From assembly GCA_965178125.1 (NCBI GenBank), contig OZ237773.1:310001-374000 (forward strand): a stretch of DNA of 64,000 nucleotides, written 5' to 3'. The notes beneath the pieces are model-generated. The model saw nothing but the letters and a program-made list of their open reading frames with translations. It ran no database searches and was not told where the DNA came from. Position 1 is the first letter of the stretch. Each line of letters starts with the position of its first letter. The position numbers and the translations under genes were made by a program. Positions 4,188 through 58,900 of this stretch are shown one piece after another. Source of the DNA: Bilabrum cf. latius (lineage: Eukaryota).

Positions 4188-5929
4188 TCAGTCCCCATCG
4201 TCCATTGGCTCGCTCCAACCGCAGTCACCTCCCCCATCTACGCGTGCTCCATCATAGTGTCGGCCAGTAGACTGGTTCCCCGCCGCGGCCCATCGACTCA
4301 TCGATTTCCTCTCTGCGATCCTCGCCGCCATGGCGGCCTGCAGCCGCACCTCCCTTGCCCTCCGGATCTCTTCCCGGGCCGCTGCCTCTCTGCGTCTAGC
4401 CATCTCTTTCAGCTGCCACTGTCTTTCCTCCAGTGCGTGCTGGGTCCTTCGGCGAGCCAAGTCGGCCTCCAGCTGCTCCACTTCCGCCCAGTGGGGAGAC
4501 GACCTGCCTGCATCGTCGTGCGGTGCACCCAGATGTAGCGTTGACTCCAGCAAGACAGCGTGCGGTTTTCCTACCTCGGGCGACTCGTTGCTCATCGTTT
4601 GAAAGCGAACAGGCCTGCATACAGCAGTCCTCTACCGCAAGGCCCAAGAGTCCCGCAGCACTCCCAGCATGCCACCATCCAGCGCACTGGCTCGAAGGTG
4701 GTGATGTGCATCCGATGCGGCGCCTCCACCCCATGTCGGTGCTGTGGCAGCAACAGAGATGATAGTGGGCCGTGCTGCTCCCTGGGCGGCGTGGGCAACA
4801 GAGCTGAGCTGCTTGGGGGCGGATGCAGCAGCTGCTGCTCGGGCTGCTTGCGATGCTGCGATGGATCCGCGTGAATTTCCGTGCGCGCCTTTCCTGAGAC
4901 TCTGGTCGCCTCTAAAAGCACCGCTGCTCCATACCTGCTGCCCTGCACCGCCACGATGAGGCCCCCAGGTCTGACGCAGGGGTTTCTGTGGGAAGGGAGC
5001 GCTGGGTGGCCCTTCGGCGTGCCAGTCTCTGCCGACTTGTTGGCCATTGCGGAGGGTCCACTGCCTGTTCTACGGGCCCCAGTTGTGTTTTAGTGAGCTT
5101 CCAGCCTCCGACGTAGTCTGCAGCTGCGAGGAGGCTGTCAGTTGGGAGGACGTTGTCGTGGCAAGCGACCTGCTCGACGTAGAGGCTGTCGTGATCGAGT
5201 CGTTTTTTCCGGGGGCACTACGGGGCATGGGAGCGATGGGCCCCGATCCAGTCCGACTGCTGAGGAATGCAACCCGCCCATTGGTAGGCGCTTCCGGTCC
5301 CTGCAGCTGCGGCCCGCTCCCGGTCTCTTCCCACTGGGCTGCTGGTTGCCCTGCCCCTCTCCCGGTCTCTTCCCACTGGGCTGCTGGTTGCCCCGCCCCG
5401 CTACTGGACGATGTGAGGGCCACGGGACTATAGTGGTCTCGCAGTTGGGTGGACACCATGGGCATGGGACCCGGGAAGGTGCAGTTTTGCATGACGCCTT
5501 CGTGCTGGAGTACCCCCCCATGCTGCCTGCTGCTAGTGGAGGCGGCGTCATCGGCCGGCGGATGCACCGGGCCGAGACCCAGCCCCTCGAGCCCGCTGCC
5601 CATGGAGGCGCCCGAGCCCGGGCGAATGGAGTGAGGGTCGTCCAGGCTGTCGCTGCTGATGCTTCCATTCGGGGAGAACGACCCCCGAGGGTAGGACATC
5701 GCCACCTGCGCGCCTGCGCGGCTCGTGTCGTCAAGCATGCTGTGGTCGTCCATGTCCCAAGCATTCCCGGTGCCTGCAAGTGAGACTCCGCAAAGAATTA
5801 ATTGGAAAATAGTATGCAAAATCTGATGCAAGTCAGTACCCTGCGTATTATTAGAGTGGAAGACTCACCTGGAGCGGCACCCGCCGTTGACGTCTGCTGC
5901 TGCTGAGGACCGACTGCTGGAGACCTCAT
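4188..5929 (-). CDS. Unknown low-complexity protein with C-terminal coiled coil (paralog A)
   Basis: ATG 5929, intron 5868-5774, then one frame to TGA 4188 with TAGs at 5070 and 4632. Long blocks are near-identical to 17575-20176. Confidence 0.7.
5317..5399. repeat. 42-bp tandem duplication (GAGQPAAQWEETG x2) inside paralog A
   Basis: ctcccggtctcttcccactgggctgctggttgccc occurs at 5317 and 5359. Confidence 0.9.
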
Positions 5930-6550
5930 TGTCTGCGAGATGCTTCAGGCTTAGCACATTTATTATAAGCATTAAATTTTGAAGGGGAAACAGTCGATGC
6001 GCTTTATGACAGGAAGAGAGAGCCTTGCTGCATCGCGGACATCAGTAGCTATCCTCGCCTGCCCAGTACTATGAGCCCATCCAAAGTCTACTTCAAGAAG
6101 CAAAGCAGACTAATCGTTACTAAAACTTCAAAATTAAGTAATTGTCACAGTGCATCTTGACTGTCTCTGATATTTGGGGCGATATAAGCGCATCCACCCA
6201 AGGCACCTATGCCCACTCCACAAGCTTGGCAAGCTGTGAATGCTATTGAAGCTACCCTCTAGGACATAGAATGCAACTCACAAAGAAGTTTGGTAACAGA
6301 TATAACTGCAGTGGGTTTTATGTGCTGGTATCAAGCGGATTAGGTGACAAATAGGGTGCGCACCAAAGGGTGTCACAACGTGATGGCAGTGGTGAAAGCT
6401 CCACTCGTCGGCTCCGAGTCGTTCAAATAGGTTCCTTCGGGTTCGCTGAAGCTTCGTTCTCAAAGAATTCTTTGGCATCTCCTGTGCATTCCCAGCAACG
6501 GATAGGATTGAGCACGCTCCGAATTCGCATAGTCATACTATATTGAGTAC

Positions 6551-9500
6551 ATGGCGGGGAGCAAGGCTGCTGAAGACAAGCCATTGCAGGACACTTAGCC
6601 GCTGAGCACAACAGTGGAATCAGCGGGGCCTGCTCCAGTTCCTCGACCACTGCCTGCTCCGGACAAGGTTCGCGGATGGAAGTATTTTAAGGATGTTCTG
6701 GGGTCCCCAAGGCTCTGGGTGGCACCGATGGTTGAGCAAAGCGATCTCGGGTTTCGAATGCTGTGCCTGCACTGGGGCGCTGACATGGCGTGTGTGCACA
6801 TGCTCGTCCCCAAGCACATTATGCAGGACACCCGGCACTCAGTTTTAAGAAATTGCTGGGCCGAACGGGACGAGAAGCGAGGTCACGGCCCGATGGTCGA
6901 CGGTTTAGGCGTAGTTCCAGTGGGGCCGATCACCGCTGAACTTGCTGCGGCAGAGGCCGAGAAAGCGAAAAAGCTCGGCGCAGCAGGTGCTAGTGCAAGA
7001 CCTTACAAGCCTGAGTAGCTCGATCCAGCGGGTTAGCCGAGCAAGGCCGCAGACCAGATCGCATCCATACGGAGGGAGGCTCTCGCGCGAGCAAGGGCCA
7101 GGATGTTCGCCCTCCCGGCACAAGAAGGCCCCATACACGAGCGAGCATCGCTTCGAGCACCGGGGAAATCGCCGACTGATCGCGATATTGACCTCACGTG
7201 GGGCCCCGGCAGATCCCCTCACCAGCTCGGGCTCCCGCTTCCGCCACCGCTGCCATCGTAGGTCGAAAGAACGGGTGCAAGCGCAGGCCCGTCGTCCTCG
7301 GCATCTCCAACCGGCGGCCCTACGGACTCCTTCGCACCAGCCCATGTCTCGTGCCTCTCAGAGATGCCACCCCTGCCGAGCCAGGCATGCACTCGTCACA
7401 CTGAGATGACCTCGTACCTGCAGCGGCACTGCGACAACAGGTACCTCCACGGCGCCCTCTCAACGTGCCCAGAAGAGGTCAACTGCTCCATCCAGGTGTG
7501 CGGGCACGACCCGAAGCTCGTGTGCCCCGCCGCCCAGCGGGCCGTGGCCCACGCCAGGAGGCTGGGTGCCAGGGTGGTCGCGGTGGACCTGAACCTGGGG
7601 TGTCCGCAAGGCATCGCCAGGAAGGGCAGGTACGGCTCTTTCCTGCTGCCAGAGTACCCTGTTGCCGCTGACGTGGTCCGGTGCCTGGATCGAGCGCTGC
7701 CTGACGTGGCAGTCACCGTCAAGATCAGGTGCCTGCCTACGATGGGAGAGACGCTCAAGGCTGTCAGGGCACTCGTCGACGCGGGGGCCGCGCTCGTCAC
7801 AGTGCACGGCCGGATCCAGCCGAACAAAGGCCCGCACATCGGGAACGCCGACTGGCGCGCCATCGCCGAGATCGTGCGCAGTTTCCCCGAAGTACCAGTG
7901 GTCGCAAACGGATCCATGGTCACTGGGGGTGACATCCTCAGGTGCCTGGCCGCCACGGGGGCAGCTGGGTGCATGCTCAGCGAGGGCTGCCTCGGTGACC
8001 CGGGTGTGTTTTACAGGGCCAAGGTACTCGCCAGGAAGCTGGGGTGGCCCAGCCTGGGAGCCTGCTCCCTCCATGAGCGAGCCGCAGGTGAAAGGGGAAG
8101 GGGGCCGCCTGGCTCCCGGGCGATGGGTGGGGAGGCATCTGATGGTGCTGGTGCTGGTGCTGGTGCTGGTGCTGGTGCTGGTGCTGGTGCTGGTGCTGAG
8201 GGCAGCAGCAGCGGAGCCGAGGCACTTTCACGCGCCCTGTTTGACATGGGAAACAACGACCTGGCCAAACTGGCGCCCAGCCGCCCCCACGAGGTGGATC
8301 TTCTGGAGGACTACGTGAGGCATGCCCGAAGGTACGGCACCGATCGGAGCGCGTTCACGAGCCACGTCAACAAGCTCGCCCACGCCCCCTTCCTGGCCTG
8401 GCCCAGACTCAGGTCCATGCAGTACAGCGCCTGGAGGCACGATGAGCTGCACTGGTACATCCTGGCTCGGCTGCAGGAGGATTCGGTCGCATGCGGGACC
8501 GGGGGGGACGGCGTCTCTGGGAATGATTCGTCCACGCCAAAGGTGGAGCGGAAGTTCGACGTGGACATGTCGCCCGAGGCCATCGCAGATCGCAAGAGGA
8601 GGGGCGTGGACAAACTCGGCAACCGGATTGTTCCCCGGGCACTGAAGAGCGAGAAGGAGAAGAACAAGCACAGGGCCGACACGTTCGTCTCCGGGAGGGG
8701 CCTCTTCGACGCGATGCAGGCATGCGTGGTGCAAGCTGGCATGACGATCAGCAGGAACCAGAGACTGTACGTGATCCGATCCGATGGGTCTCAGGCCAGG
8801 CATCTGGGGGAGGGCAGGGGGGTGTGTGCGGCAGCGCAGGCGGCCATCGCTGCTCTCAACAAAGAGAAGTCTGCAGCCATCGGCGCGCTGGCTATGGGTG
8901 CGACAGCGGACGAAGCTCCGCAATCTGACGGTCCTAGAACCGGTGCGGGAGCCCCGAGCGCAAGCTCAGCAGCTTCATCATCGTCCTCGTCCTCGTCATC
9001 TTGCTCATCATCGTCCTCGTCTCCTTCTGCCACCTCTAGTTCAAACCCGAGTCAGGCCAAGGCGCCCGAGATCCAGCGGCCAGAGGGGAAGGAGCCCTTC
9101 TGTCTCATCAGCGGGGTGCCAGTGTACGCTGGGGATCGCATCGTTGTTCCCTCGAAGCTGTACCACTCGATCGGCTCCGACTGGGCCACACAGCACCATG
9201 CGATGCAGATACCGCCCGCCTCGCTGAGTCTTGTGTACGAGACGATGGACGAGGTGGTGTAGATCATGCGGGCGAGGCTCAGGGAACACGGGGCGGGTTG
9301 CCTGACCATGCTGAGCAAGAGCAGGGCCAGAGAAATGGGGCTGCAGGTAAACGGCGCCAATCCGCCTAAGAAGAAAACCAAGGGGAAGCAGCAGCAGCAG
9401 AAGTAGCAGCAGCAGGCCGCACCGGGTGCAGCCCATGTTGGTAGTGCTCCATCCACGGAGCCACCGACAATGCCTGCTCTCGCGTCCACTGCAGGGCACA

Positions 9501-10009
9501 TGGATCCGCTGACTCGGGTGGGCGACTCGCAGTCCGGCGAGACCTCGGGGAACCTCGCGCGGTCGACCGACGCCGCCATCGTGCCGATTGCCATCGCGTG
9601 GCCGGAGGTGGGCGGGTGGTACTACAGGTACCGGCTGCACTCCCAGCCGCAGTGCTCAGGCGGTGCCAAGCTCGAATCCAAGCCGCCCAAGAAGAAGAAG
9701 CCAAGGGAGGAGAGGAGAGCTAGGGCGGTGGTGAGGAGGGAGGCCATGTATGGCGTGGGGGGCAGGGGGTCTCTTCACAGCGGTGGGATCCAGGAGCAGG
9801 AGAGGCTCAAGAGCATGGAGGCGGCCAGCGGGGCAGGCGCCGCAACGCACTCGGGTGATCTGCGATCTCACAGCATCGGGTCTGGAGCAATAAGCGCTGC
9901 ACCGGCAGTTGCTGGATCCACCCGATCGGCGCCAGATGCCATGGATGACGCGGCTGGAGCTGCGGGGGGTCAACCAGCCAGCAAGAAGCCGAGAGTAGAA
10001 ACTAAGTGA
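6551..10009 (+). CDS. DUS1: tRNA-dihydrouridine synthase, DUS1-like (about 1152 aa with long insertions)
   Basis: One frame from ATG 6551 to TGA 10007, with TAGs at 6596, 7016, 7034, 7259, 9260 and 9404. Motifs APMVEQSDLGFRMLC, DLNLGCPQGIARKGRYGSFL, VTVKIR, TVHGR and ANG. Confidence 0.88.
8144..8197. repeat. (GGTGCT)9 microsatellite encoding poly-Gly-Ala in DUS1
   Basis: Read directly from the sequence. Confidence 0.95.
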
Positions 10010-10164
10010 TGCAAGTGGCCAAAAAGCCGCTGCCTTTCCTGATCCGATTGGGGTACTTTCCCTGTCCAAATCATGATACCTCCTGGATTTGATTTTGTAA
10101 GTGCACAAAAAGCGGCCAAGAACAAATGCAAATACCCATGTTGGCGGCCATATCCCGCAGCACT

Positions 10165-11118
10165 TCACGAAGCCTGCTTCGGCCTATCGATTCCCTTGTC
10201 TCTTGCCAGCTGGCACACCTTCTTCAGTAACCGACACGACCCCTCCCACTCTTCCCCAGCAAATGCCTCAAACCTCTCGAACCAGTCGTTCACCCGTGGC
10301 ACCTCACGCATGCGCTCCTCGAAGTCGCCGAGGGCCTGCATGGAGGCAATCTCCGAGGCGAGGCTGACGTCAGCGATGCTCGCATACTGCGTACCTGCCA
10401 CCCATGGGCCAGACCATGACGAAGGAGGTGCTTCATCAGTGCTGGAATGCAAGTTGTGTGCAGTGGGGCCGTCTGCCAGGCGGTCCAGGCGGCCCTCGAG
10501 CTGGGCAAGTGCTCGGGCGAGCACGCGCTCTCCGCGCTCGATCGACTGCTCGCTCCTGGTAGGTAAGCCACCGAGCGGTCCCATTACCCTGCCAAAGGTT
10601 ACCGGTGCAGACCCAGGCCGCAGCGCGCAGTGCTACCAGTCAAGGTGGGCATCAATAGATGCCTTGCCCTGCAGATCGTATCCCGCGTACCAGTGGTGGC
10701 TCACTCCGAAGGCAGGCTCTGACGAGAGATACCTAAGAATTGCGTGGGATTCAGAAAGGACAAATGGCGCACTATTTGAACCATCTGCGCCGTTCCCGGC
10801 CTGTTCCTCGCTAATCACCTCAATAACTGGAACTTGTCCCATTGGAGAGAGCTCTGCGACAGTGTGCAAACCCCATCATGATATGAATGAAGCAGAAGTT
10901 TGGTTCCGACACAAAGATCTGCTCTACTACGACCTCCATAAACGAATCTTACTTCGAAACCATTCTGTTCTGACGTCTCCCTTGGCGATCCTAACAGTCT
11001 TGAAGTCAGCATGCATAGATTTCGTTGATTTCATCAGGAAGTACACTGCCCTGGCCGGCTGCGAAATCAAGTCAGCATACAACCTAACGATACGTTTGGG
11101 ACCATGATTTCGGAGCAT
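10165..11118 (-). CDS. Glutathione S-transferase, theta class
   Basis: Exon 1 11118-10953 (LYADLISQPARAV), intron 10952-10854 (GTAAG..GCAG), exon 2 LSPMGQVPVI..LSESHAILRYL..LDW*HCALRPG..SIADVSLASEI. One TAG at 10633; ends TGA 10165. Confidence 0.9.
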
Positions 11119-11238
11119 GTGTTTGTCTTACAATAGGACGTCAGGATCGCCGGAGTGCCATTGGCAGCGGGAGTGACGAGCGAGCCGTGCGGTTCAAATT
11201 CTTGCTGCAACTGAGGCTTTGTCACCATAACCTGAGCA
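11119..11238. promoter_or_regulatory. Putative bidirectional promoter between the GST and coiled-coil genes
   Basis: 120 bp between divergent ATGs. Confidence 0.45.
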
Positions 11239-12612
11239 ATGTCATCATATGTAGCTGCACTGCGAGATTCAACGAAGTTCTTGAATGAGTCTCTGGGGGT
11301 GCTAGATGGAGTTAAAGGAAGGGATCCTCCTACAGTGCACCCGCGCGACCTGCCTACGGTGCGGCATGCAACTGTTGCAGAGTAGGCCACATATATGTCG
11401 TGAGGTCAATATATAAGGCTGCCAAACTGATCAAACTTGCATTTCTATTTCATGTGCCGTGTCGAGTAGCTGCCCCGAGTCTGTGTTGCCCGCAGGTACG
11501 AGCAGAGCCGCCAAGCTGCAGAGGGATACCAGCAGATCCTTGCTGCCTCGGTCGGCCCCGCAGCGCACCAACTTGCGCAACCGCAACCACTGCCCGAAAT
11601 GCTCACGGATGTCCCCAAGACGGGCATCGTGTCGCGAGCGCTCACCCAGTCGCACGCGGTTCGACTGGGAGCGAGCCAGCTCGGCAGCTCGGCCGCCTCT
11701 GCGCTGCTCGCTTCGACGAGGCTCCCGACGGGCGCGCCAACAGAACCATCACAACTGGCTTCCTCATCATCTTCCTCCGCGTCATCCTCAGCCGCCTCGT
11801 CATCAGCCGCTGCCTCCGGGGGTGCACCCATGACAGATGGCGACGACGACGACGAGAGACCGGACTTGGCAACGAGCGCGCTGGGGGTGTCCAGCCTTGG
11901 TAGCAGCAGCAGCAGCACGAGCAGTAGCACGACCCCATCGGGCCAGCCATCCGGCCCGTCCTCCCAGTTCAGCCACATGTCGGTCACCGAGCACGTCAGT
12001 GCAGTGCAGGCGCTGCTCAACGCCGCCGAGGACAGGGTCGACGCCCACCCGGGCTTGGACGACCACAGGCTGCAGCTGAGGACGCTGAGATCGAAAGCGG
12101 CCGGCCTAGCCGCGGGGCTGCGGGCCGCCAACCAGAGGCTGCGCCCCTACTCAGAATCGAAAATCGACGAGACACGGGCGGCGCGGCTGTCAGCCGAGGA
12201 GGAGGACATGGGGCGGGAGCTGCGGGAGACGCAGGGCCGGGCGGGGGAGGCTAGGGAACAATTGGAGAGGGCGAGGGACCGGCTGGACGATGCCAGGGAA
12301 CAACTGAGAGTCGCGGAGGAGGACGCGGCTGACGGCCGGGACACGGAATCGAAAATCGCGGGCGCGCGTGCTCGCAGGGACGAGACCCAGAGGGAAGCCG
12401 AGGCGCTGAACGAGGCGATCGCGAGGGCAAGGCAGAGGCTGGAAGATGCCGAGGCGGCCGTGAGGAGCCTGGAGCAAGCGACTGGGGCTGCTGGGAGCGG
12501 GAATGATGCAGGCGCCGGGACGCGGGCCGGCAATGCGGCGATGGAGGGTGCTGGAGAGGGTGACGGTTCACCTGCGGTGTCCACGCCGACCGATGGTGGG
12601 TCTTCGTCATCA

Positions 12613-12663
<51 letters not shown>

Positions 12664-13230
12664 TCGGGGTCGGGGTCAGGCGGTGGGGCAGGTGCGGGCT
12701 CATGGGCTCCTCCTGCCGAATGGGGCCTGGAGGGGAGGCAGCTGGCGCAGGAGGAGGAGCGGCTGGCGGCCGAGCTGGGCCAGCTAGAGAGGAGGGCTAG
12801 AGTTGCGGATGCGCAGGCGCAGGCAGGAGCTGAATTCGCGAGGCAGAAAGCGGAGGAGGCGGTGCAGCAGGAGCTGGACGACCTCTAGAAGTAGACAGAG
12901 GCGGACAAGCAGGAAGCCAGCGCGGTGGCGGGCCAGGGCGCATTCCTGTAGCGGGCTGTGGGCATGGCGGCGAGGCAAGGGGCCGAGGAGGGCGAGCTGG
13001 CGGCTCGGCTGCTTCGGTCGCTGCTGGATGCCGGCGGGGAACAAACCGTCGATCAGCTGCGCGGCGCTGGCGGTGGGGAGGGCGATACAGGAGCAGGTGC
13101 AGGAGCGGCAAGGGCGGGTGCAATCGGGTCGGGTGACGTCATGCGCGGGGTGTACAAGCTGCTCGGCCGAAGACTTGTGCGGCTGGATCGGTCCTCTGGG
13201 GAACCGGTGGTGACAGCGCTTGTGGGCTGA
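11239..13230 (+). CDS. Unknown coiled-coil protein with Ser-rich linkers
   Basis: Exon 1 11239-11399, phase-2 intron 11400-11495 (GTGAG..GCAG), exon 2 to TGA 13228. TAGs at 11383, 12886, 12892 and 12949. E/R/A/L-rich heptad-like segments. Confidence 0.72.
12601..12666. repeat. (TCG)n microsatellite encoding poly-Ser
   Basis: Read directly; in frame with the coiled-coil gene. Confidence 0.9.
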
Positions 13231-13670
13231 ATGCATCACAGCTTAGTCCCGTGTAGAGAATAGATCTTGAGGGTGGGGGTGTGGCGACCAAACCCATTGC
13301 TTGCAGATGGAGATCGGCAGTTGATCAACCGGCGCTAGTCTAGATCCAACGTCATTAAGGGAGGGCTGCCAGTGGACCAGAACGGGCACTGCTGGCGGTT
13401 GAACGGACCGGGGGTGCCGGCGGCCGGCGCCCGGTTTGCGAGCACTGACGCACATCGGGTAAGGAGTGGCCCCAAGGTGGAGTTTACATGGTTTAGGCCA
13501 TAGCAGCCGAAGCGTGAAGTTGGTTGGTCCGGTCCTGGACGTGTTTTCGTGATAGCGTGCGCTTTTAACTTCAAGTTGATCTCACAAACGGCTAAAACTG
13601 TAGATCCCCCCAAACACCTGGTATACTTGAAGGCGAAGCTCTTAGTGGCCACCTCAGAACAAGTCAACGT

Positions 13671-14867
13671 ATGATGAAGAGGGGTATCACGGACTCGGCT
13701 CCAAGAGCGGAAAAGACATCATCCACGGACGCAAGTTTGGCCCGAGCCCGCAGCACTCCCGGTCCATCCGACGCAATATCTTAGCTAGTAGGGGATGACG
13801 ATCGCGAATCGATGGATCCCAAGTTGTAGTTGGAGGCTATGTTTGCGGCCCCCTAGAGTGCTGAATGTGTGTGTAGAGCTGCTGGCAGAGGTGTATTATC
13901 GGCCTCGGCATCGATCCCAACCACTTGTATTTGCTGCGGACACAAATTCTTCGATAGCGCCATGCAAGCGTTGAAAGATTTTGATAATAGGCTTGTTCGA
14001 GAAGGAAGGCATGTGGGTGATTTGTTGGATAGCGATGGTGCGACATGTGTGGCGGCCACCAGGCTGTTTGAGTCTTCAATCCGAATGCTCGGTCCGACTG
14101 GATTTCTGCATGAAATGATGATGGTGTCGGCCAAAACGCAAGATATTCCAGGCGTTATGAAAAGGTTGACTTTATTTGCTGGATAGTAGCTCCAAGTTAG
14201 GGCCCACGTCTTCCAAAATGTTGGCGAGACGTACGTCCACGATCATGGGCAAAGCTTCATATCCGTAGGACTGCTCGGCGAGTACATCAACCGAACGTGG
14301 AAGATTCTGGATGAATCAATAAAAGACCATGACGCCGTTGCATCTGTGGCCGCGATCTCTGCGAGTGCAGATCAAGCTGGCGAGGTAGCAGCGAGCGGAG
14401 CCGGGTGCGATTCCGCGCCTGCTGGGCACGCGCCGGCGGCTGGCGGGGAGGGGCCCAGTGCCAGTTCCAGTGCTAGTGTAATTCAGTCCCATTTCGCGTT
14501 TCATAGGGAACCAGGCGGCGAAATTACTGCTATAGGTAAGCGGGCAGGCAGACTGGTTTTGGACCGTGAGGAGCCCCACGGCAAAGGGAGGTGGCGGCTT
14601 GTGCATCGCACAGAATTTCATACGGTAGCGCCAAAGGCCAGCTTGGTGGTCACTCTAACATTCCGAGATATGAAGCGAAAACCAGAGCCAGTCACAATTC
14701 TGTCTCCGACTGGGGCGATTCATGCGCCTACACATCCGGTAGTCGAGCTTGATGCGGGTTCTGATGGACAGAGCACGATGCGTGGATTCTGCTTGGCATT
14801 GCTTGCGGATGCTGCAACAAAACTTGAGGAGGCAAAACCGGGTGGAAGCCACAAGCCAAGCGCATGA
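13671..14867 (+). CDS. Unknown protein, about 398 aa, apparently intronless
   Basis: One frame from ATG 13671 to TGA 14865, broken only by TAG (13782, 13827, 13854, 14184, 14187). No family recognised. Confidence 0.6.
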
Positions 14868-14983: not shown

Positions 14984-16818
<1,835 letters not shown>

Positions 16819-17574: not shown

Positions 17575-20176
17575 TCAGGCCTGCCTGCCTCTCTTCCTGT
17601 CAGGCTCCTCTGAGCCCGAATCTACTTTTAAGGCGTCCTCTTTGCGAGATCGCTTCGTGCCAATGCTACTAGGATCTTCTTTCGGATCCATATGTGCTCC
17701 GTATTCCATGCTCTGAATGCCAAAAGCAACGCTATTGGCGTTCGTTGGTGACCCTACGTGCACCCCGCGGGGCCTACGTGGCCTAACCGTTGAAGATCGC
17801 CCAGCCATTGTTAACTGCAGGCGCATGGGTTTCCCGCCATGATTGGATGTTCCACCCAGCCTGTCGGCACTCAGCAACCCGCGTGCCTGACCGCTGCCGC
17901 TAGCCCCGTCGCTGTCGCTGCGGTTAGAATCCGCGTCGCAGTCGCTCTCATGCGCATCTTGCTCTTCCTCGCCACAAGGACTGCTCGATCGATGTCCCTT
18001 CGGTGTCGTCGATTTCCTCTCTGCGATCCTCGCCGCCATGGCGGCCTGCAGCCGCACCTCCCTTGCCCTCCGGATCTCCTCCTGGGCCGCTGCCTCTCTG
18101 CGTCTAGCCATCTCTTTCAGCTGCCGCTACTGCTCCTCCAGCATATGCCTGGCCCTTAGTCGAGCCAAGCCGGCCTCCAGCTGCTCAAGTGCTTGGTTGT
18201 CCGGCAACGACCTGCCTGCACCATCGTGCGGTGCACCCAGATCCAGAGTAGACTCCAGCAAGACAGTGTGTGGTTCTCCTACCCCGGGCGTCTCGTTGCG
18301 CACCGTTTGAAAGCGGACAGGCCTGCACACAGCAGCCCTCTACCGCTAGCCCCAAGAGTCCTGCAGCACCCCCAGTGTGCTCCCATTCAGAGCACTGGCT
18401 CGAAGGTGATGATGCGCATCCCATGCGGCGCCTCCACCCAGCGCCGACTACACGGGACCCGCTCCCGCATCAGAGATCCCGGTATATTCCACGGAAGCAT
18501 TGGAGCTTGATGCACTTGCTGCTGCCGCAGCAGCTGCCATCGATGCAACACGGGCTGCAGCCCTGGCGGCAAAGGCAGCGCGTGCTACCGCTGCAGCAGC
18601 TTCGTTCGAATGCCCGCTCCTATGCCTGTCGGCACCATGCAGCCCGATGTACGCATTGCTGCTCTAATGCATTGGGTCCTGCTGCTGTGGAACGCGCTGT
18701 CCACCCTGACCCTGACTGTACACCCCTTGCGCTTCGTGAGTGCCCCACGACCTCATGGTAGTGTAGCTCGCGCTAGGGCCTGTCTGCAGCTGCGAGGGCT
18801 CTGCTGTCGAGTGGGAGGACGTTGTCGTGGCGAGTGACCTGCTCGACGTGGAGGCTGTCGTGATCGAGTCGCTGTACGAGAGGGCACTACGGGGCAGGGG
18901 AGCGATGGGCCCCGATTCAGTCCGACTGCCACCGCTCCGATCCGAATTGGCTTGCAGGTGCTGCGCTGTACTGTAGCTGTACCCGTAGGTCTCGCCGTAG
19001 GAGACAGAATCCGGCGGCTGCATGATTCCGAGGGTGGAGCGGGGACTTCTCCCTTCCCTGCCGCCCACTTGGATACATGCACCCTGCGATGGGTTGCTCT
19101 GTAGTGCTTGCGATGCATTCCTGCCTCCGTGCAGTCCATTCTCGCTGCTGCTGCTGCTGCTGCTGCTTATGCTTTCCATGTAAGGTGGCTGCCCATGAGG
19201 ATCTTGGTGCCCCTAGGGCTGCTGCTGATGCTAGGATACGTGGGGAGTCACCGGAGACAAGGCGCCACCCGGCCCAATCATCAGGCTGCGCGCGCTGCTG
19301 TACACAGATCCGATCATCAGGCCTGCAACGGGAGGGGGCACCTCCTCGGCGTACCTCGGCGGCAGGGAGCGGAGGGACTGCCCGCTGCCCGAGAAATTTG
19401 AGCTGATCTCGGACAGAGAAGGCGGGGGGGGCTCCGGGGGCCCGCCGGCCCACTTGCTGTCGGCGAACATGGGGCGGTTGGAGGAGGGGCCTGCCTGGCC
19501 AGTGAGTTGTTCCCCAGCTGCTAGCATGGAGGGAGGAGCCGGTTCCACCTGGCGTAGTGACCCGTACTGGTTCTCTACCCAGGGGACCGGTCCTTGCTGT
19601 TGCCCTTGCTGCTGCTCTTGCCATCGACCGGCCCCTCTCCCGGACGATGAAAGGGGCGTGGAGCCTTGGTGGTCTCGCAGTTGGGTGGACACCATGGGCA
19701 TGGGACCCGGGAAGCTGAGGCCCTACGTGGATCCATCCAGCTGAGGATACCCCCCATGCTGCCCGCTGCTGGTGGAGGCGTCGTCATCGGCCGGCGGATT
19801 CACCGGGCCGAGACCCAGCCCCTCGAGCCCGCTGCCCATGGAGGCGCCCGAGCCCGGGCGAGTGGAGTGAGGGTCGTCCAGGCTGCCGCTGACGATGCTT
19901 TCATTCGGGGAAAATGACCCTCTCATGTGGGACCGTGCGCTGTGCACTCCCCCGCTCGCGCCATCGAGCAAGCCGTCATTGTTGTAGTCCCAGCGGTCCT
20001 CGCTGCCAGCTCGAGCGGCTCGACCACCTGCGAACCAGTTCAACAAGCAGCTGAAACAATTATAATAATATAGGGCGAATGTGCTTCGATAGCATCTCAA
20101 AGAAGCTCTCGCGAATCTCACGGTGCGATGCCATCAGCTGCGGTGACTGTTCGGCGTCTTTGTGCGGAGAACTCAT
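17575..20176 (-). CDS. Unknown low-complexity protein (paralog B)
   Basis: ATG 20176, phase-1 intron 20121-20028, then one frame to TGA 17575 with TAGs at 19723, 19231, 19213, 18664, 18448, 18346, 18340 and 18127. Same exon layout as paralog A and shares sequence blocks with it. Confidence 0.72.
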
Positions 20177-30561: not shown

Positions 30562-33500
30562 TTACGTAGGCTCATTCACATCACCCTCCTCATCCTCATC
30601 GCCACCCATCATCTCTAGAATCTCCTATTTCCTGTCAGCCGCGCTCATGGAGCCATCATTCTTGCTTCCTGCCCCCGTGATGAGCTGCACGAGCCAACGA
30701 CCTGCTCTCCTGCGCCACGCATCGCTGGCCTCTTCCATCGATTTCGGAGGCTCCTCCCCGCTTCCGACAGTCATTTCATACTCGGTCGGAAGCTCGTCGT
30801 CGAGCTCATTTTCTATGCCCTAGCTCCCGCTCTCACCGGCACCGGCCTCCTCGCCGGAACCCAAGTCCTCTCCGTCCACGCCGGGCTGCTCGCCCTCCTC
30901 CTCGTCGCGTTCCTCTTCCCCCCCAGCGGACTGCCCCCAGAGGTCCTGCCCCTTCTCTTCATTATCCTCATCGTCGTCATCGTCCACGTCCGGCCATCGA
31001 TCGCTCCTGAGACCAAGGATGTTGGCGCGGTCCTGCGGCATGGGGGGGCGCTCGATCTCCAGCACGTCAGGGCAGGAGGCATCTGCGGCTGCTCCCTGGA
31101 CGGTGCTTCGCCCACCTTCGCTACCATTTCCAGTGGCCTGCCGGCTTCCGCTCTCTCCCGTGGCCCCTGTCCCTGCCCCCATCTTCGCCCAAGGTGGCAG
31201 CCCTGCACCCCTGAGTGTGTCCATGACCCGTCTGTCCCTTATCTCTTCCCGCCTGCGGTACAGCTTGATCCGATCCTCCAGTCCCGCTCCGATCCTCTCC
31301 GTGTCCTCTTTCTTGTCCCCCTCACCCACATTCCCATCCTCATCTTCATCCTCGTCGTCCTCCTGCTGCATCTCCCGCACCTCCGCCTCCCTTCGCTCGT
31401 GCACGATCTCGCGGGCGCCAAACCAGTAGTCGCGCTCTTCCAGTGCAGACAGCATCTCCGGGTCTTCACACTCGTTCACGCCGGCGCTGCGTACCCACGA
31501 ACCTTCGCCAAAGTTCGCCGAGCCCCGGCTCTTCCTGGTCGCGTGCCGCCGGCCCCCGCCCCGTCGCTGGTCCTCATCCTCATTTTCCCCCTCCCCCATC
31601 CCCTCCATGTCTCCGTCCTCCCCACGACCCCCGCCCACCACCCCCGCTTGTTCCCCGAGCTCGTCATCCCAGAGACCGTCGCCCTCCTCCTCCCCGGGCT
31701 CCAGCACGCGCCCCGACAGCCGATGCACTCTCTCCTGGGCGCACCACGCTACCCACTGGTTCAGGTCACGCGCATACACCCGCCTCTGCTCCTGTGTGGC
31801 CCACCACCGGGGCCTCTGATTCACGAGCAAGAGCCGATAGATCTCCGACACCTCGGCCGTGTCCCCGATCGCGCCCAGAGCAGGCTCCGTTCGCTCGAAG
31901 ATGCTGGGCCTCCGCCGGGGGTCCTCGTCCTCCAGGCCCAGGGCAGGGTCCCTCCGCGCCGGCTTCCTCTGCCGCCTGCTCTTGCGCTTGCTCCTGCCCC
32001 CGCTGCTGCTTGCACCGCGCTTGTCATCCTCACCTCCCCCCTCCTCCTCGAGATCCTCTTGCCCCTCGCGAACCAGCGGCCTGTACCTGCCCATTGACAG
32101 GTCGTGCTCCGTGTCCAGGGCCTCTTGTTCCTCAGGGAACAACGCGTCGTGCACGCGGGCGAACTCGTTGAGCAGCCCCCTCGTGTCCTGGGGCGCTGGG
32201 CCCCTCCACCTCATGTGCCAGTAGGGGGCGTTCCTCCACCCCGCCTGCTCCTCCTCCAGCGCAACTGCGGCTTCTCGCCGCGTGGGGCCCTCCAGGATCT
32301 CATCCGTCCTCAGCCGGGCAGCCACCCAGGCCGGCAGGACACCCGTCAGCAGGCTCACCCGCAGGCTGTCGCAGGCTCTCGGGTCCGCGCACAGGGCCGC
32401 CACCCACAGTGTGACGAGTGCGCGGTACCTCGCCGATGCGCTCCTGGCCTGCCGCACGTCCAGCGGCCTGTCTGGGGGAGGCCCCGTGCAGTGCTCGGGC
32501 AGGATCTTGCGGGCGCCCAGGGGCCGGAGCGGGTTGGTGGAAGGGACGATGGGCAGCGCCTGCAGCTCTTCTGGGCTCCTAACGGGAGCGTCGTCGTCTT
32601 CTTCTTCTTCTTCTTCTTCTTCATCATCCTGCTTTTGCTCCTTCTCGCTCTTGGCACCACTACCCTTGTCTTGCTCACCATCCCCACCCAGTGACCTCTT
32701 CTTTGACCACTGTCGGCTCTTGCCCCCATCCGCGCCCTCCTTGTTCCCTGGACCTCCCGTCAGCTAATCCGCCAGATCGGCCCGGCTCGTGATCGGCTTC
32801 CGCTTCCGGGTGGCGTGCCTCTTGCGGGGCACGGGCTCGGGGGCGGCGCCAGAACCAGCACCGTCGGGCGTTTTATTGCCATCGGGAGCTTTCTGTGAGG
32901 ATGCTCCCCCTTCGGAACTGGAGCCATGTTCCCCTGCCTTGTTCCCTGGCTGCTCGTCCACCTGAGCATCCTCGGACTCGCTGCCCTCCATCTGCTGCTG
33001 CTGCTGCTGCTGCTGCGGAGTGCTCTCCTTCCCTGCTGCTGACGCAGTCTCTTCTGCCTCGAAGCCGAGTATGCCCCTCTCATGCTCCTCCCAGACCGTG
33101 AGCTCCGTGTCATCCGCGCCCAGGGAGCGGTAGAACTCGATCGTTTCCTCGCACGCCCGCTCCATCGCAGATCCGGGCTAAAGCGCGCCCCCGGAGTTGC
33201 CCCACCTGTCCAACGCACGGACCTACTCGGCAGCGACAGAGTACCTCTGGTTGTCGAGCGACCGCTCCCGGGCCGTGTACGTGTCCGAGAACTCCCACGC
33301 TGGCGCGTGTCCCCTGGGCTCGTCCACGCCCGTCCTGGCCGCTGCCTGCTCGCAGCACGCCTCGTACAGCTCCAGCTCCAGGAGCCTGCCAACCTCGGCG
33401 CAGCGCGCGCTCACTGTCCCCGGCAAGCCCTCCGCCAGCATCCTATCACACCTCTCGCACAACCAGGCGAGGTCTGCAGTCGGGGGCACCTGGTTGGCGC

Positions 33501-36500
33501 TCCAGCCCCGCCCGTCCGCGCTCCTAAGCGGAGAGCCGCTGGCGCCATCCAGGGTCTCCATGGAGAGAGACTCGCGTTTGTCGGCGAGCCGTCGGCTGAG
33601 CCGCTTCGGGGATGACGCCTAGGCAGAGCCGCCTGCCTCTTCACCGTCACTGCCCTCACCGCGTGCAGCCGCTGCCTGCTTCGCCTCCGCCTCCTTGACC
33701 CTGGGGTCCTCCTGAGACAGGGACAGGGCGCGAGCCAGCGCCTCTGCCACCGCCCTGCGGGCCGATGCGGCGGCGCTGACGTCATACCCGTCAAACTTCC
33801 GCATCCTCCGCAGCCGCTCCTTCGGCCCCGCCAGCAGGTCATTCACAGGGAACAAATCGACCGCGCGAGGGTCCCCCAGGCAGAGAGGGGGCTCTGCCTA
33901 GCCGGCATCGAAGTCAGACAAGGGGCCCCCCAATTCGTCGGTCCCTGTGGCTTCGGTGCTGCTCTTGTTGGGCTTCTGATCCGAGGGGCCGTCAGCAGAC
34001 ATGGGTGCCTGGCCCGAGCCTGACCCACTGGCGCCGCCCCTGGTCCCAACACCACCGCGCCTCGCGTCTCCCTCGGGACGGCACACCCAGCCGAGCCGGT
34101 CAAGTGCATTACACTGCGGCACCCCATCCCCCAGCGCGGCCAGCACGTCCTAAGTCAGCCCCAGAGTCTCCAGCACAGGCAGCACTAACGTCTGGTAGGA
34201 GGGGGCACCTAAGGCCTTCGTGAGTGCCTCCTCGTCCTCCTCGTCCTCTTCCACGGCCAGCTCCTCCTATTTACCTCCTCCTCTTCTTCCTGCTGCCGCT
34301 GCTGCTGCTGCATTGGCCATCGCGCGGCGCTACTTCCTCACCGCCGCCATGACCCTCTGCCTCCTCCTCAGCCGATCCAGAGACACGGCCCCGGGCGCGT
34401 GCCTCCTCCTCCTCCTCTCCGCCCTCGCCTCCCTCCTCTTCGCCTTACGCTCCTGCCTCAGTCTCTGCGCCTCCAACCACGCCAGGTCCTCCTCCTCCAA
34501 GTCATGGCGGGACCGCTTCAGCAGGCGCTTTCTCTTGCGCCTGTCGTCTTCCTCATGAGCCCCAGCGCCCGCTGCCCCGCCCCCCACTGCGTCCCGCGCC
34601 GCTCGCCGTTCCGCCGCCCGCCGCATCGTGTCGGTGCTCATTGCACCTGCTCCGAACCCGATCACGGAGGAGTCATCGCTGTCAGATTCTGTGCTGGCGC
34701 CTCCCCCCAGCAGGCCGCCCACCCGCCCGGACTCGTCTGTGCTGCTCCCGGACATGTCTCCCTCCGACGTGTCGTCGTCGTCATCCTCTTCCTCTTCCTC
34801 GCTATGGATGCCGTCCGCTTCGTCCACACCGTCAGCATGGCCACCAGTGCCGCGCCCCGTCTTCAATGTGGGCATCGCGCTTGCCGCCCCGCCCCTGACC
34901 CCGGGCTTGCGCTTCCTGCGGCCGGGAGATGACGCGTCCCTTGCCCGTGGCCTACCCAAGCCCGCCCCTGCCACCATCCTCCTCCTCTTCTTGCGGAGGG
35001 GTCCGGAGGAAGACACGGCCAAAGCGGCGGAGAGCTTCTTCCTCTGCCTCCTGGCCAGCCGCTGAGCCTCCCTGTCCTTGCCCAAGCCCGCGGCAAACAC
35101 CGCTGCCCTGTGCATGTGCAGACCAGCCAGAGGCCCAGCGAGTCCCATCCCAAAGGAAGCGTCCGGCTGAGCCCTGATGGTCTTGATCTCTGCTCCTGAT
35201 TCCTTGGACATCGCAGCTGCTTTCCTCCGAGCCTCCTGCGCGGCAAACACAGACGGCTGCATCACAAGCTGGGACAGCCGCAGGAGGACGTCCTCCCCGG
35301 CCCCCGCACCGCTTAGCAGACCCTGGGCGCATGCCAGCGCCGTCATCCTGCCCGCGGCCGTGCCCCCCTGTCTCCCGCCCCCAGGGGATTTCACCCCCCC
35401 GCCCTGGGGTCCCCCCTTGGGCACCCCTAGTCTGAGCCTCCTCATCACCATCTGCTTCTCACGGATGTAGTCGCCCAGCTGCGTGCTCTGCGTGGCCAGC
35501 TGGGCCTCCCATGCCTAAGCAGCCTTCACGGCCATGGAACCAGACACGATCCCAGGCTCCGGCTTGGAGCCAAGCGTGCGGCCCCCCAGCTGCAGCAGCA
35601 GACGAGCCACCCCCGCGATGGCGTCCTTCCTCGAGGACGAGGCCGCCTTGCAGCCCATCACCGGCTGGGGGTCGTGGAGGGGCAGCGGGATCTGCGGCCC
35701 GGTGGGCTGCTTGGAAAAGGACCCGTAGGCTGAAGGGGCTGAGGAGGAGGATGAGGTTGAGGAAGACGAGGATCGAAGAGGTTGTCCCTGGCGGGCCCCC
35801 GACCCAGGACGGCCGGATGCACTCGTCACACCGAATGACGAATGCGGCGGGCGGATGCCCCTGGCAAGCGGCCTGTGGCTCAGGCCCCTGCCAGACCCCA
35901 GCTGCTGGTGCTGCGGCCCACCGATGCCCGCCCTATTAGCCATAAAGCTGCCCGGCCTCGCTCTGCGAAAGGACCCTACCTGCGCAGCGCTGGCCCTCTG
36001 CTTGGCCTGCGCCTGCGCCCTCTGCTGCCTCTGTCTCTGCAGTGCCATTGCTTGCTGCTGCTGGATGGCCTGCTACTTCCTGAGCTGCTCCTGCTTGACC
36101 CTCTGCTGCGCCGCCAGATCCCTCTTGGCGGTCTGCTGCAGGCTTTCCAACAAAGAGGGCCGCGGGGGCTGAGGCTTGTTCCCCGCTGTTCCCTGGGGGA
36201 ACACGGGCCTGGGTGCGGGCTTGGCTTTCTTCTTCGATTTTAGCAGCCGATCCCTGAACGCCCGGGCTTGCTTTGCCCTGGCCTCCTCTGCTGCCCTCTT
36301 CTTGGCTGCCTCCTGCCGGGCCCTCTGCAGGGCCGAGGGGAGGCGGGGGGCGGCGGGCGTGGAGGCTGACGGGGAGGAAGATGACGAGGAGGAGGAGGAC
36401 AGCAGAGACTTGGCGGAGATCCCGGCAGCAGCAGTGGTGGTGGTGATGCTGCTCAAGCCGGTGCTGGCCGCTGACAGTGCTGGTGCTGGTGCTGGTGCTG

Positions 36501-37353
36501 ATGTTAGTGCTGGTGCTGGTGCAGGGGTGACAGGTGTTACCACCGCTGTGACCGGCCCTGCCGCCGAACTTGCAATTGCCGCGCTGGTGCTGGTGCTGGT
36601 GCTGGTGCTGCCGGATGCGCCCTGGCCCGCCCGACCCGCCGCCAGCTTGCCCAGCCCGAAGCGGGAGAGGAGTCCCCCGCCTCCCTTCGATCCAGAGAGC
36701 TTGCCCAGCCTGCTCGAGATACTGCCCAGCAGCGAGGACCCGCTGCCTGCGGAACCGCCGGGAGGTGCCTGCGCGGCGCCGGTCGCGCCCGCACTAGGAG
36801 CCTGTGAGCCAACCGCGCTGCCTACTTGCGTTACATCATGCGACGGGCGCGGTTGCTATGTTCCGAACCCGCCTATTTTCGCCAACCGGCTCGCAACGCT
36901 CGATGCGAGGCTCGACTGGGAAACCGACGCAGGGGCAGCTGTGGCCGAAACGCTTGATGATGCGCTGCTCGGCGCAGACCATCGCGTGCTCTGCGCCACT
37001 GGGCCAAGTTGTGATGCCGCTGGTGGAACGTACGATCCAATTGGGCGACCAGGGAATCCAGAGCTTCCTTGCAGGCGGTACCCGCCGTAGCTACCTGGCA
37101 CGGATGGCGGACGAACAGCGCCAGCGACTGGGGGCGCATACCCCCCGCGAAACTGAGTGTAATTGGTATTACCATGTGGGCCTCCAGGTGGCGCGTAGCC
37201 TGGCTAGCCTGCGGGGCGCGGTTGGTACCCTCCTTGCTGGAACGGTTGCGGTGCCCCACGCCCTCGGGGTGGCCGGCCGTATCCTGAATACTGCGACGCA
37301 TTGGATCCTGAAGGAACATACCCACCACCCCAGTGAGGTGGCTAATTGTTCAT
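30562..37353 (-). CDS. Very large unknown protein (about 2263 aa, intronless) with a G/P/Y/Q-rich N-terminus and charged low-complexity blocks
   Basis: Nine ORF-track fragments share one frame. ATG 37353 to TAA 30562 with 15 internal TAGs (37342, 37204, 36856, 36073, 35515, 34330, 34267, 34150, 33898, 33619, 33223, 33178, 32764, 30820, 30625). Confidence 0.72.
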
Positions 37354-55956: not shown

Positions 55957-58900
55957 TCAACCCACCGAGTCATGGTGAACTGCGCTGGCTCGAAACAGGG
56001 ACAGCCACTGCCTCCGTGCCCTGCCTTCTGCCTTCTAAAAGGCCCTCCAGCGCTTGATCACTCGCTCCCATGCCATCTTCCTGGTGAGAGCCGCTTCATA
56101 CGACCAGGTGAAATCCCGCAGGTCCTCAGAGATGCCCCACCTGCCCATGTTCAAGGCACCCAACTCGCCCTCTCCCGCCCCCTCACCTTCGCCATCACTC
56201 TCCAGATCCTCCCAACTAGCCATTGCGCCTCGCAGGATCTCATCCCAGTCCCCATCGCTGTCCGGCTCCCTGAAATCCGGATCTGCTGCCCCCTGCAAAC
56301 TAGTGTAGAAAAGCTATCCCTCCCCGTCCAGCCGCTCGCACTCACGCATCAATACCCTCAGTGCATCGTGCGCGCCCCCGCACACCATGGCGGCAATCGG
56401 ATACTCCCCATCCTTCCAGCGGCTGCCTGTCCATGCCCCGCCGTTCCTACCGGAGCCAACTTCCTCTGGACTCACGTTGCACCCGCTCTCCAGCCCAGTG
56501 GCCATGCCATCAATGAGGACGGCGAGGGGCAGCACTGCCACGGCCCCCTCTTGCGGTGCACCGTCATCCATCGTTGCAACGTCCAGGAGATCCGCTCTCG
56601 CCAGATCCTCGACACTACTCGCTGCGACCACCTCTCGCTTGAACCGATCCAGTGCATCGATGCAGAACTAAGCTGCATCCATCCCGGGGGTGTCTTCTGG
56701 AGCGCACAGAGAGGATGCATGATGGCTGGAAGGGGTGCCCCAAGCTGCTCGTGACAGTCTGGCGTGCCTCGGTGTGGCAACGCCCCGCTTTGCAAGGAGC
56801 TTGCCAAGCCACCACTGCCACTTCGGCACGCCCTCCACGACCTGCAGTGCCCTGCGCATGGCGATGGCAAGGTGCTCGGGTCCATCGGCGCCCTGCCTGA
56901 CCCAGTCCTGAAGAGGCTACAGCCTGTGCCACGCCTTGGTGCTGTATCTCTGGCCCTCGATCGGGCCACAGCTAGAGGATGCCCCTCCTTCAAACTACCT
57001 GTTGGACCCAGCCAGACTGTAGTCCACTATGGCTTTCACGAGGCATCGCCCGCCCGAGCTTGCTGCATCCTGCGTGCGCTTCTTGAGCATTTGGTGCTAG
57101 TCGGAGAATCGGCCCGTGAGTTCCAGGCTGAACGGCCGTGCGGGTCTCCCCATCGTCATATCCCGTTCTGCAAGTGCCTGCTCGTTGTCCCACTGCGATG
57201 CTAGCGTGCTCGTGTCGAACCACGCCTGGGCCATCTGAGGTGACTGGCTGCACGCGTGCGCGATGGTCGCAGATTCCAGCCATCCGCAGGTGCACTCCTT
57301 GGGCATCATTCTGTCGATGTCGGGGACCTGAATGCGACGGAGGTTCGGAGACAACCATATGGCCCCGAACACCGAGCCGTGCATCTGACCCTTCTTCCAG
57401 TCGCGGTCCAGATCCACCTCAGGCCTGGCGTCAGGCGAGTCGCCACGGCGGAATACAGGCGCGAAATCAACGTGCAGTTCTCGGAGGCGAGCATGCATGG
57501 GAATAGCACGGCATACAGCTTTGGCTAGGGATGAAAGCTTTCCCGAATACGGCCCCGGGTTGTGCTCCTAGATCCACAGGCTGATCAGGCTATCGTTCCA
57601 CTGGAGCATCGCGGACACGTCGGACTGCAGGCCCTTGGGAAGGTCCCGTAGCTCAATGTCGGTCACAGATTGGGTCAGCACCAACCCGCGAAGCATGGCT
57701 GCTGCGCAGTCCTTGCCCGCCTCGGGGTCCCTCAGGTGGAATACCTTGAGCCTCTTGGAGCGAGCGAGCGCCGCTCCCACTGCCTTGGCTGCTGCGAGGG
57801 GCCGCCGCGTTTTCGAGATCGTGTCGCGCAAGTAGAGTTTCTGCACGGGAAAGTTGTGCTCTATCATACCGAACAGCAGGTGAGCGAATGGGCTGTTCAT
57901 CTTCGTACTGTTTATGTTGAGCAGATGCCCGGCGCTCCCTTTGCTGCTCGGCTGCGGCGGAAGAATCGGCTCGCGGACTCGCGAAGGAAGCTCAAAGCTG
58001 CAGCCATCTATGAACACATCAAGGCGCTTGGTACCGCCCAATAGCGTTCCGAAAAAGTCAGCTAGGTGATTGCTTCGCCAAATGCACCGCACCATGTCAA
58101 TTTTTGCTACCGACTTGGACTGTGCAATTGCTCTTGCTAAGCCCTCCTCGGGATCCGCACAGACAATATCACAATTGAGCAGGTTCAGCTTGCTGACCCT
58201 GCGGCTCTTGGCGAGCAGGCTCGCAAATTGTGCCAGAACTTTTTGATCGTCGCGCTGTACTTGAATGGACAACGTACCAATTGAGACCCGCTTCCTTGCA
58301 GCCTAGCGCAGCATACGACATGCTGCTGTACATGATACTATACCCTGCGTGCACATAATCCTTGACGCGTTGGTGACAGTTCTGGCATCGATGGAGGCGG
58401 GGTTTTCAAGCAGCGGCATACCAATTGCAAGGTTTACGTGCTTACAACAACACCAGGCATACCAAGTGCAGACATAATGCTGGTATTGAGACGTTCGGGG
58501 CTTGAACGGCCCGAGGTTTCTATCCCAGGCTATCGAAAGCGTTTCAAAAAAGTGCCGCTCGCTTTCCCTTCAAGTTGGTTCCGGTTTACGGGGATCGGCG
58601 CAGCCTCTCGGCAATAACCGGATCTGTAGTCCGTTCCCAAAAGGTCAGCAGTGGTTCCACTAAATCTCTTGCCAATCGAAGCGAGCCTATGTCTATGGAC
58701 CACCACATCTCGTAGCCGTCCTCTGTGTCACTCCTGGGCATGAAGAACCTGTGCCGCCTGTTACATACACGGCGGTCTGTAGTGGCTGAACAGCCCGAAC
58801 GGGGCGGGCTCGTGGTTGCCAACCCTGGCCATGTAGAGCACTCGCACCACCACCGACTAGATGCGGCTCAGAAACGTGTCTACGTCGATGCCAACATAGT

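Follow-up and report, generated by a model that had tools for sequence, protein, structure and literature searches.

What does a TAG codon mean when it interrupts a gene whose reading frame and homology continue beyond it? This question is raised by a theta-class glutathione S-transferase (GST) gene in a stretch of 64,000 nucleotides from Bilabrum cf. latius (contig OZ237773.1, positions 310,001 to 374,000), the whole of which was analyzed and is here called the window. Our analysis favors a reassignment of UAG from stop to an ordinary sense codon, most probably for Gln, with UGA as the main terminator and UAA also still terminating, and we place the probability of this reading at about 0.8. 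A code in which only UAG is changed to Gln corresponds to NCBI table 15. A preliminary description of the locus had given the peptide IDAHLDW-TAG-HCALRPGSA with its TAG at 10633. Peptide and coordinate were both confirmed, but the description had left the strand unstated, and the LDW-TAG-HCALR motif lies on the minus strand. The reverse complement of positions 10612-10662 reads ASIDAHLDW-TAG-HCALRPG, while the plus-strand letters are PRPQRAVLPVKVGINRC and their plus-strand translation is an unrelated peptide.

TAG in the GST gene and across the window

The GST gene was modeled from the sequence as two exons that join in frame across a 99-nt intron, giving 855 nt and 284 codons with a TGA end (Table 1). 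The 156 codons downstream of the TAG remain in frame and align to GST C-terminal domains. When the read-through frame at 10165-10875 (minus strand) was compared with PDB sequences, theta-class GSTs were the only matches and all four were GSTT2 or GSTT1. The exon-2 product matched human GSTT2 with E-values of 1.9e-11 (1ljr) and 5e-11 (4mpf) and GSTT1 with an E-value of 1.7e-7 (2c3q and 2c3n), and the alignments covered stretches both upstream and downstream of the TAG. All four PDB matches of the 55-residue exon-1 product were likewise GSTT2 or GSTT1 (E 0.006-0.03), with DLISQPARAVY aligned to DLVSQPSRAVY of GSTT2 and DLLSQPCRAVY of GSTT1. The Ser of the SQP motif in exon 1 lines up with the Ser of both proteins and would be what we take to be the N-terminal catalytic Ser of theta GSTs. 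The window GST, which is approximately 35-40% identical to human GSTT1 and GSTT2 over the aligned parts, has their N-terminal SQP-x-RAVY motif and their W-x-H-x-x-L-R segment and differs from them by insertions, for example EEQAGNGADGSNS and, separately, a 25-residue loop before the last helices.

Pfam bit scores, computed from the exon-2 product only and thus without the first 55 residues, were below the curated cut-offs for GST_N_2 (21.4; cut-off 25), GST_C_2 (19.1; 24.9) and GST_C (14.7; 20.7). The preliminary description had held that a stop at the TAG would delete the C-terminal domain, and this agrees with our alignments, in which the part that would be lost matches the C-terminal domain of GSTT2 and Pfam GST_C_2. 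The relatives P0003, P0004, and P0006 could be aligned along the full length of exon 2. The five nearest GST relatives are environmental or Logan sequences, and the GSTs of Spirogloea, Cafeteria, and Prasinoderma are distant. Judged by these alignments, the parts before and after the TAG both belong to a true theta-class GST.

Contigs from sequencing runs were compared with positions 6000-13000 of the window, and five runs contained the GST stretch, none of them recorded as RNA. A contig of run X1 (record 4, 823 nt) covers 10192-10853 and then 10953-11113, and the joint 10853/10953 drops exactly the predicted 99 nt (plus-strand ends CT..AC, equal to GT..AG in the orientation of the gene). Over 10192-10853, including the TAG, this contig matches the window with 0 other letters and 0 gaps, and for none of three runs were letter differences from the window listed. 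A second X1 contig splices out the 96-nt intron of the plus-strand neighbor gene, and X1 depth was nil at 6000-6467 and variable from gene to gene elsewhere. From the two intron removals and the gene-wise depth we infer that the X1 contigs derive from spliced RNA. A contig of run X2 (record 8, 4466 nt), which comes from a different study than X1, is collinear with the window across the 99-nt intron. Run X6 was without depth over the GST and is uninformative there. The presence of the TAG in the spliced X1 contig, without differences, indicates that the codon is present in the mature mRNA and is not edited.

The same contig bears on the proposal that the TAG is absent from the translated mRNA, either removed with a mini-intron or changed by RNA editing. 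A 48-nt in-frame stretch that includes the TAG does begin with GT and end with AG, and its length is a multiple of three. The spliced X1 contig, however, is collinear and identical through this stretch, whose 16 encoded residues include the conserved HxxLR motif, and the real introns seen were 96 and 99 nt long. The stretch was rejected as a mini-intron because of this collinearity, and although contigs may overlook rare isoforms, absence of the TAG from the translated message is extremely improbable.

A HMMER homolog search with the GST gave 202 matches at E <= 0.001, the best 150 of which were aligned, and two of the aligned sequences stop or start at the TAG. P0005 (75 residues, 81-84% identical) ends exactly at the Trp preceding the TAG and P0002 (141 residues, 84-85% identical) begins at the first Met past it, as expected from standard-code gene calling if the relative has a stop in this column. 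Likewise, at residue 1409 of the open reading frame (ORF) at 30565-37404, P0153 ends with SGGAL just before the window TAG and P0154 restarts at Met 1414; both are listed with longest contig 8170. A diverged relative therefore has a stop in line with a window TAG at two sites, codon 128 of the GST and residue 1409 of this ORF. Assembly error and recent nonsense mutation were considered as origins of the TAG and are ruled out by the matching stops of the relative together with runs from two studies that carry the same letters. The end of P0154 faces the Gln with which a poly-Q run of the window begins, a hint only, which was not counted, and the C-terminus of P0152 faces an Asp of the window, may be a contig end and was left uninterpreted. 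Metagenome scans with part of ORF 30565-37404 and with P0004 gave no confirmed locus of the relatives' DNA.

If the GST were a pseudogene, or its TAG an error of assembly, the product would be truncated after Trp 127; the stop of the frame under the standard code and the exon-2 Pfam scores under the curated cut-offs would both fit. This is nonetheless very improbable, given the identical letters in the X1 and X2 contigs, the existence of a spliced form, the in-frame codons past the TAG that align to GST C-terminal domains, and a relative that has a stop at the same column yet is 84% identical on both sides of it. The same pattern of TAG codons also recurs in many other genes of the window.

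Under the standard code the frames of the window reach at most 666 codons, whereas frames of 2493, 2280, 1877, and 1165 codons appear with TAG as sense; setting TAA as sense left the frame lengths almost unchanged. Pfam families were found in five of the 19 long TAG-sense frames, namely FH2 (formin, E 1.7e-47), M14, Dus, M8 (leishmanolysin), and SYF1, and the remaining 14 matched no Pfam family. Sixteen frames contain 97 in-frame TAG codons, and the other two frames of the same stretches contain 85 and 116 TAG, 193 and 285 TGA, and 44 and 39 TAA; TAG is as frequent in frame as off frame. The base composition downstream of in-frame TAG is like that after CAG, with no dominant next codon, and this lack of a downstream nucleotide motif argues against motif-dependent readthrough. 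The window has a G+C content of about 54-69%, GT-AG introns of 96-99 nt and long low-complexity proteins, and a search for its taxonomic placement gave Eukaryota with mixed phyla. TAG is almost certainly a sense codon in this organism.

The ends of the frames point to TGA as the main terminator (13 of 16 frames), followed by TAA (3 of 16). Reading past these terminators extended the 16 frames by 0-147 further codons and the TAA-ended frames by 24-47. TAA is rarer than TAG in the window (417 vs. 821, both strands). TAG might keep two meanings, being sense internally yet a terminator in some genes or contexts, or being decoded by more than one tRNA. Context-dependent codes occur in other protists, a TAG lies within the last 20 codons of three of the 16 frames, so that a terminal TAG is conceivable, and TAG faces Gln in a relative less often than ordinary Gln codons do (see below). 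However, TGA or TAA closes each of the 16 frames and reading further adds few codons, and three frames with a near-terminal TAG are approximately what we estimate for 0.6% TAG per codon. There is also no nucleotide context after TAG, and TAG-TAG doublets occur in frame, at residues 2222-2223 of the frame at 47915-55393 (minus strand) and residues 197-198 of the frame at 13596-14864 (plus strand). A larger cluster, TAG-TAG-TAC/T-TAG, lies in frame at 26857-26868 (minus strand). Such in-frame clusters, if truly coding, would be strongly disfavored were TAG to keep stop activity. A dual or ambiguous TAG is accordingly quite improbable.

The residue at TAG

The identity of the residue was approached by pairing TAG sites with a relative whose proteins are 81-87% identical to those of the window (86.5% identity over 1282 aligned non-TAG columns). 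Five sites are unambiguous, that is, without a gap within six columns, and TAG faces Gln at three of them (Table 1). At the site in ORF 55960-58569, SLISLWI-TAG-EHNPGPY aligns with SLISLWIQEHNPGPY of P0152, which is 81% identical over 366 gapless columns. A seven-site set adds two positions of ORF 30565-37404 that were left out of the five-site count: residue 1025, where TAG faces Ala with one gap within six columns, and residue 1262, in a gapped low-complexity stretch, where TAG faces Ser, or His after a one-column shift. Likelihoods were calculated from a substitution table scaled to the same relative alignments. At the five sites the log10 likelihood was highest with Gln (-4.03), compared to -7.46 with Lys, -7.90 with Glu, and -9.08 with His, an advantage of Gln of about 10^3.4 over Lys, 10^3.9 over Glu, and 10^5 over His. 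With seven sites Gln was again first (-7.94), compared to -10.72 with Lys and -12.04 with Ser.

A paralog pair within the window, ORFs 17578-20133 and 4191-5864 (both minus strand), of no known family and about 73% identical in the conserved parts, offered further comparisons. The codons opposite TAG are CAA, CAG, CAG, CAC, TGG, and TTG, so that Gln codons occupy three of six positions. TAG faces TAG once, in a column that the paralogs share (4632-4634 and 18340-18342). Gln is thus the plurality partner in the relative and the paralog alike and has the highest likelihood at the relative sites, although the pairing comprises only 12 or 13 scorable sites. A weaker likeness to the C-terminal, coiled-coil-like segment of these paralogs was seen by eye in the frame at 14987-16723 (minus strand).

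The sequence surrounding TAG was compared with that of other codons, using 98 TAG sites in 17 frames with 16,113 codons. The neighbors within three residues of the 98 TAG sites include 42 Gln, compared to 23.7 +/- 5.1 for matched non-Gln sites and 47.7 +/- 8.0 for true Gln sites, and only 4 of 5000 permutations of matched sites reached 42. If TAG encodes Gln, it accounts for 98 of 783 Gln codons. The pairing of orthologs and paralogs and this sequence context, rather than the GST column, suggest that TAG most probably encodes Gln. The preliminary description had also considered Gln the best fit, and support for that proposal now comes from sites other than the GST.

The grounds given for it, however, did not hold. 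The description had argued that the W-x-H motif of theta GSTs identifies the residue, citing the GSTT1 sequence at this place, and human GSTT1 does have Gln at the TAG column, reading LAWQHTTLR in the PDB alignment, whereas human GSTT2 has His. The tabulation of this column that the description had proposed was carried out on the best 150 of the 202 homologs. His, which was absent from the alternatives that the description had listed, dominates the column with 110 occurrences and Gln has 14, and under the condition for refutation that the description itself had set, the motif argument fails. The other residues are Tyr (8), Lys (3), Glu, Pro, Ser, and Trp (2 each), and Phe, Asn, Thr, Ala, and Asp (1 each), and the column is not covered in two rows, P0002 and P0005. 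Trp precedes the column in 131 rows, of which 97 have His, 12 Gln, and 6 Tyr. The query carried Gln at the TAG column, so any bias would favor Gln. P0003, which at 52% identity is the nearest full-length relative, has His, and other near full-length relatives have Gln (P0004, 44% identical), His (P0006 and P0009), and Tyr (P0008). The 14 natural homologs with Gln indicate that Gln is tolerated at this position. By this alignment the GST column is compatible with Gln but alone points to His, and the identity of the residue rests on other sites.

The predominance of His in the GST column, including the nearest relative, is one of several observations that weigh against UAG as an ordinary Gln codon. 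The only other TAG within a well conserved domain, that of SYF1, falls in an uninformative column (His, Ala, Gly, and Asp in four solved homologs), and the TAG codons of the Dus, FH2, M14, and M8 frames fall outside the Pfam-matched stretches. One of the five unambiguous relative sites faces Lys with 11 of 12 flanking columns identical, at odds with a simple Gln-only assignment. TAG faces Gln at only three of five sites (three of all seven), whereas these alignments show ordinary Gln codons conserved at 36 of 40 positions. The lower match may mean that TAG occupies less constrained sites, that it arose also from GAG or AAG, or that decoding is not purely Gln; the other partners Glu and Lys are one first-position change from TAG. 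No tRNA gene was found within the 64-kb window with ARAGORN and Rfam, nor any other RNA family, and hence no tRNA-Gln(CUA) was seen there; eRF1 was not among the Pfam families matched in the long frames of the window. The absence of in-frame TAA and TGA follows from how the frames were constructed, some of the 98 TAG codons sit in parts of frames that are possibly untranslated region or intron, and run X1 was not recorded as RNA, its label being only a guess ("RNA? (probably DNA)"), as is the kind of X6.

Several of these points would suit a sense codon for another residue, such as His, or one of the residues known from other variant codes (Lys, Glu, Leu, Ser, Tyr). The relative has Lys, Glu, Ala, or Ser opposite TAG at four of the seven sites, the paralog has TTG, TGG, and CAC, and UAG-only changes to Leu and to Ser are known in other eukaryotes (PMC11687900, PMC8271138). 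Against this, the five-site likelihoods favor Gln over Lys, Glu, and His, no unambiguous site faces His, and Ser is about 10^4 below Gln at seven sites and depleted near TAG (ratio 0.61). TAG is also one transition from CAG and two changes from the His codons. A residue other than Gln is unlikely.

Under the favored reassignment to Gln, the window would be nuclear DNA of a GC-rich eukaryote that has introns and uses UAG as a sense codon, and the GST TAG would be codon 128 of a complete, expressed protein of 284 residues. The ribosome would insert Gln between Trp and His of LDW-x-HCALR. By analogy with other UAG-reassigned eukaryotes, UAG would be decoded by a tRNA-Gln with a CUA anticodon, and eRF1 would have lost recognition of UAG and kept that of UAA and UGA.

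Feature coordinates and further observations

Table 1. Positions of the GST gene features, introns, and compared TAG codons in the window
Feature	Position	Strand	Remarks
GST exon 2	10165..10853	-	Carries the in-frame TAG; TGA terminator 10167..10165
48-nt in-frame stretch, GTAGCA...TTGGCAG	10589..10636	-	GT..AG ends; starts at last G of the Trp codon; rejected as mini-intron
In-frame TAG of GST	10635..10633	-	Codon 128 of 284, LDW-TAG-HCALR; CTA at 10633-10635 on the plus strand
GST intron, 99 nt, GTAAGA...TCGCAG	10854..10952	-	Spliceosomal; sequence prediction, then X1 contig joint
GST exon 1	10953..11118	-	ATG 11118..11116; exon end in codon phase 1; X1 contig spans 10953-11113
Neighbor-gene intron, 96 nt, GTGAGG...CCGCAG	11400-11495	+	X1 contig joint 11399/11496
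TAG vs. CAG, paralogs	18127..18129 vs. 4419-4421	-	Best-aligned paralog site; EEQ-TAG-RQLKEMARR / EERQWQLKEMARR
TAG vs. stop in relative	33178..33180	-	ORF 30565-37404, residue 1409; P0153/P0154
TAG vs. Gln	33223..33225	-	ORF 30565-37404, residue 1394, vs. P0153; flanking columns 11/12
TAG vs. Lys	33898..33900	-	ORF 30565-37404, residue 1169, vs. P0153; flanking columns 11/12
TAG vs. Gln	34150..34152	-	ORF 30565-37404, residue 1085, vs. P0153 (87% identical); flanking columns 12/12
TAG vs. Glu	34267..34269	-	ORF 30565-37404, residue 1046, vs. P0153; flanking columns 9/12; acidic low-complexity context
TAG vs. Gln	57568..57570	-	ORF 55960-58569 vs. P0152; 12/12 flanking columns identical

The GST and its plus-strand neighbor are divergent, spliced genes about 130-280 bp apart. 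Depth spikes of 757 in X1 and 573 in X6 were found in the bin 9276-9509, which belongs to the C-terminal, low-complexity region of the Dus frame (plus strand), and 392 nt (8997 to 9390, AT..GC ends) are skipped by one X2 contig in the same region, about 8997-9510. The spike and the skip probably reflect a simple repeat common to many loci, or a length variant.

Other frames have low-complexity or repetitive segments. The M14 peptidase frame contains approximately ten tandem copies of the 12-residue unit SPSNTSTPSISS at about 41000-41350 and ends in a tandem stop, TGA followed directly by TAA, at 43101-43106 (both plus strand). The frame at 14987-16723 (minus strand) contains about 60 consecutive Ser codons at about 16050-16230.

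Significance and comparison with known variant codes

Gene calling with the standard code breaks the genes of this organism at each TAG. Databases already hold examples: the relative's GST is present as the two fragments P0005 and P0002, and a protein of roughly 2300 residues as the pieces P0153 and P0154. The locus also illustrates how a single conserved motif can mislead on the identity of a reassigned codon, the GST column saying His and the site-by-site comparison with a relative saying Gln.

A wider proposal, which we regard as tentative and somewhat doubtful, is that a poorly sampled, GC-rich, intron-bearing lineage outside the ciliates independently evolved a UAG-only Gln code with TGA as main stop, and that at least two genomes (81-87% protein identity) share the change, including single TAG positions. 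If true, the rare decoupling of UAG from UAA would have originated independently once more. AT-rich genomes are the usual ground for codon-capture arguments, and the base composition here would be the opposite setting. Each UAG-only case bears on how eRF1 discriminates between UAG and UAA, and a GC-rich example with TGA as main stop would test mutation pressure as a cause of such changes.

Among known variant codes, cases in which UAG is reassigned but UAA unchanged are described as few (PMC11687900). UAG alone is reassigned to Gln in Iotanema spirale, a fornicate whose primary terminator is UAA (PMC5304391), and in Protocruzia tuzeti and two lineages of phyllopharyngean ciliates (PMC11687900). 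Other UAG-only changes are to Leu, in the rhizarian exLh and some ciliates (PMC11687900), and to Ser, in Scotinosphaera (PMC8271138). Both UAA and UAG are read as Gln in ulvophycean green algae, hexamitid diplomonads, Streblomastix, Amoeboaphelidium, and many ciliates (PMC8271138, PMC11687900, PMC5304391). A literature search that covered titles and the beginnings of abstracts, with few subscription journals, found no GC-rich lineage outside the ciliates with a UAG-only Gln code.

On these accounts, the window resembles the codes in which both UAA and UAG are Gln in that a stop codon apparently means Gln and TGA serves as a functional stop. It differs in that TAA and TAG are both sense in those codes, whereas in the window TAA as sense hardly lengthens the frames and TAA ends three of 16. 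With TAA scarce in this GC-rich DNA, a rare sense use of TAA is conceivable, if improbable. With Scotinosphaera, the rhizarian exLh and some ciliates, the window shares the decoupling of UAG from UAA, and it differs in the residue, since pairing and likelihood favor Gln and no unambiguous relative site faces Ser or Leu; one paralog site in the window faces TTG. The phyllopharyngeans with a UAG-only change have 27-54% G+C (PMC11687900), compared to about 54-69% in the window. The closest likeness in decoding is to the Iotanema type, UAG being sense and apparently Gln, with UAA and UGA terminating, in both; UAA is the main terminator in Iotanema spirale and TGA in the window. As far as its sequence indicates, the window appears to present the same outcome as the Iotanema-type change of UAG alone to Gln, in a different genomic setting.

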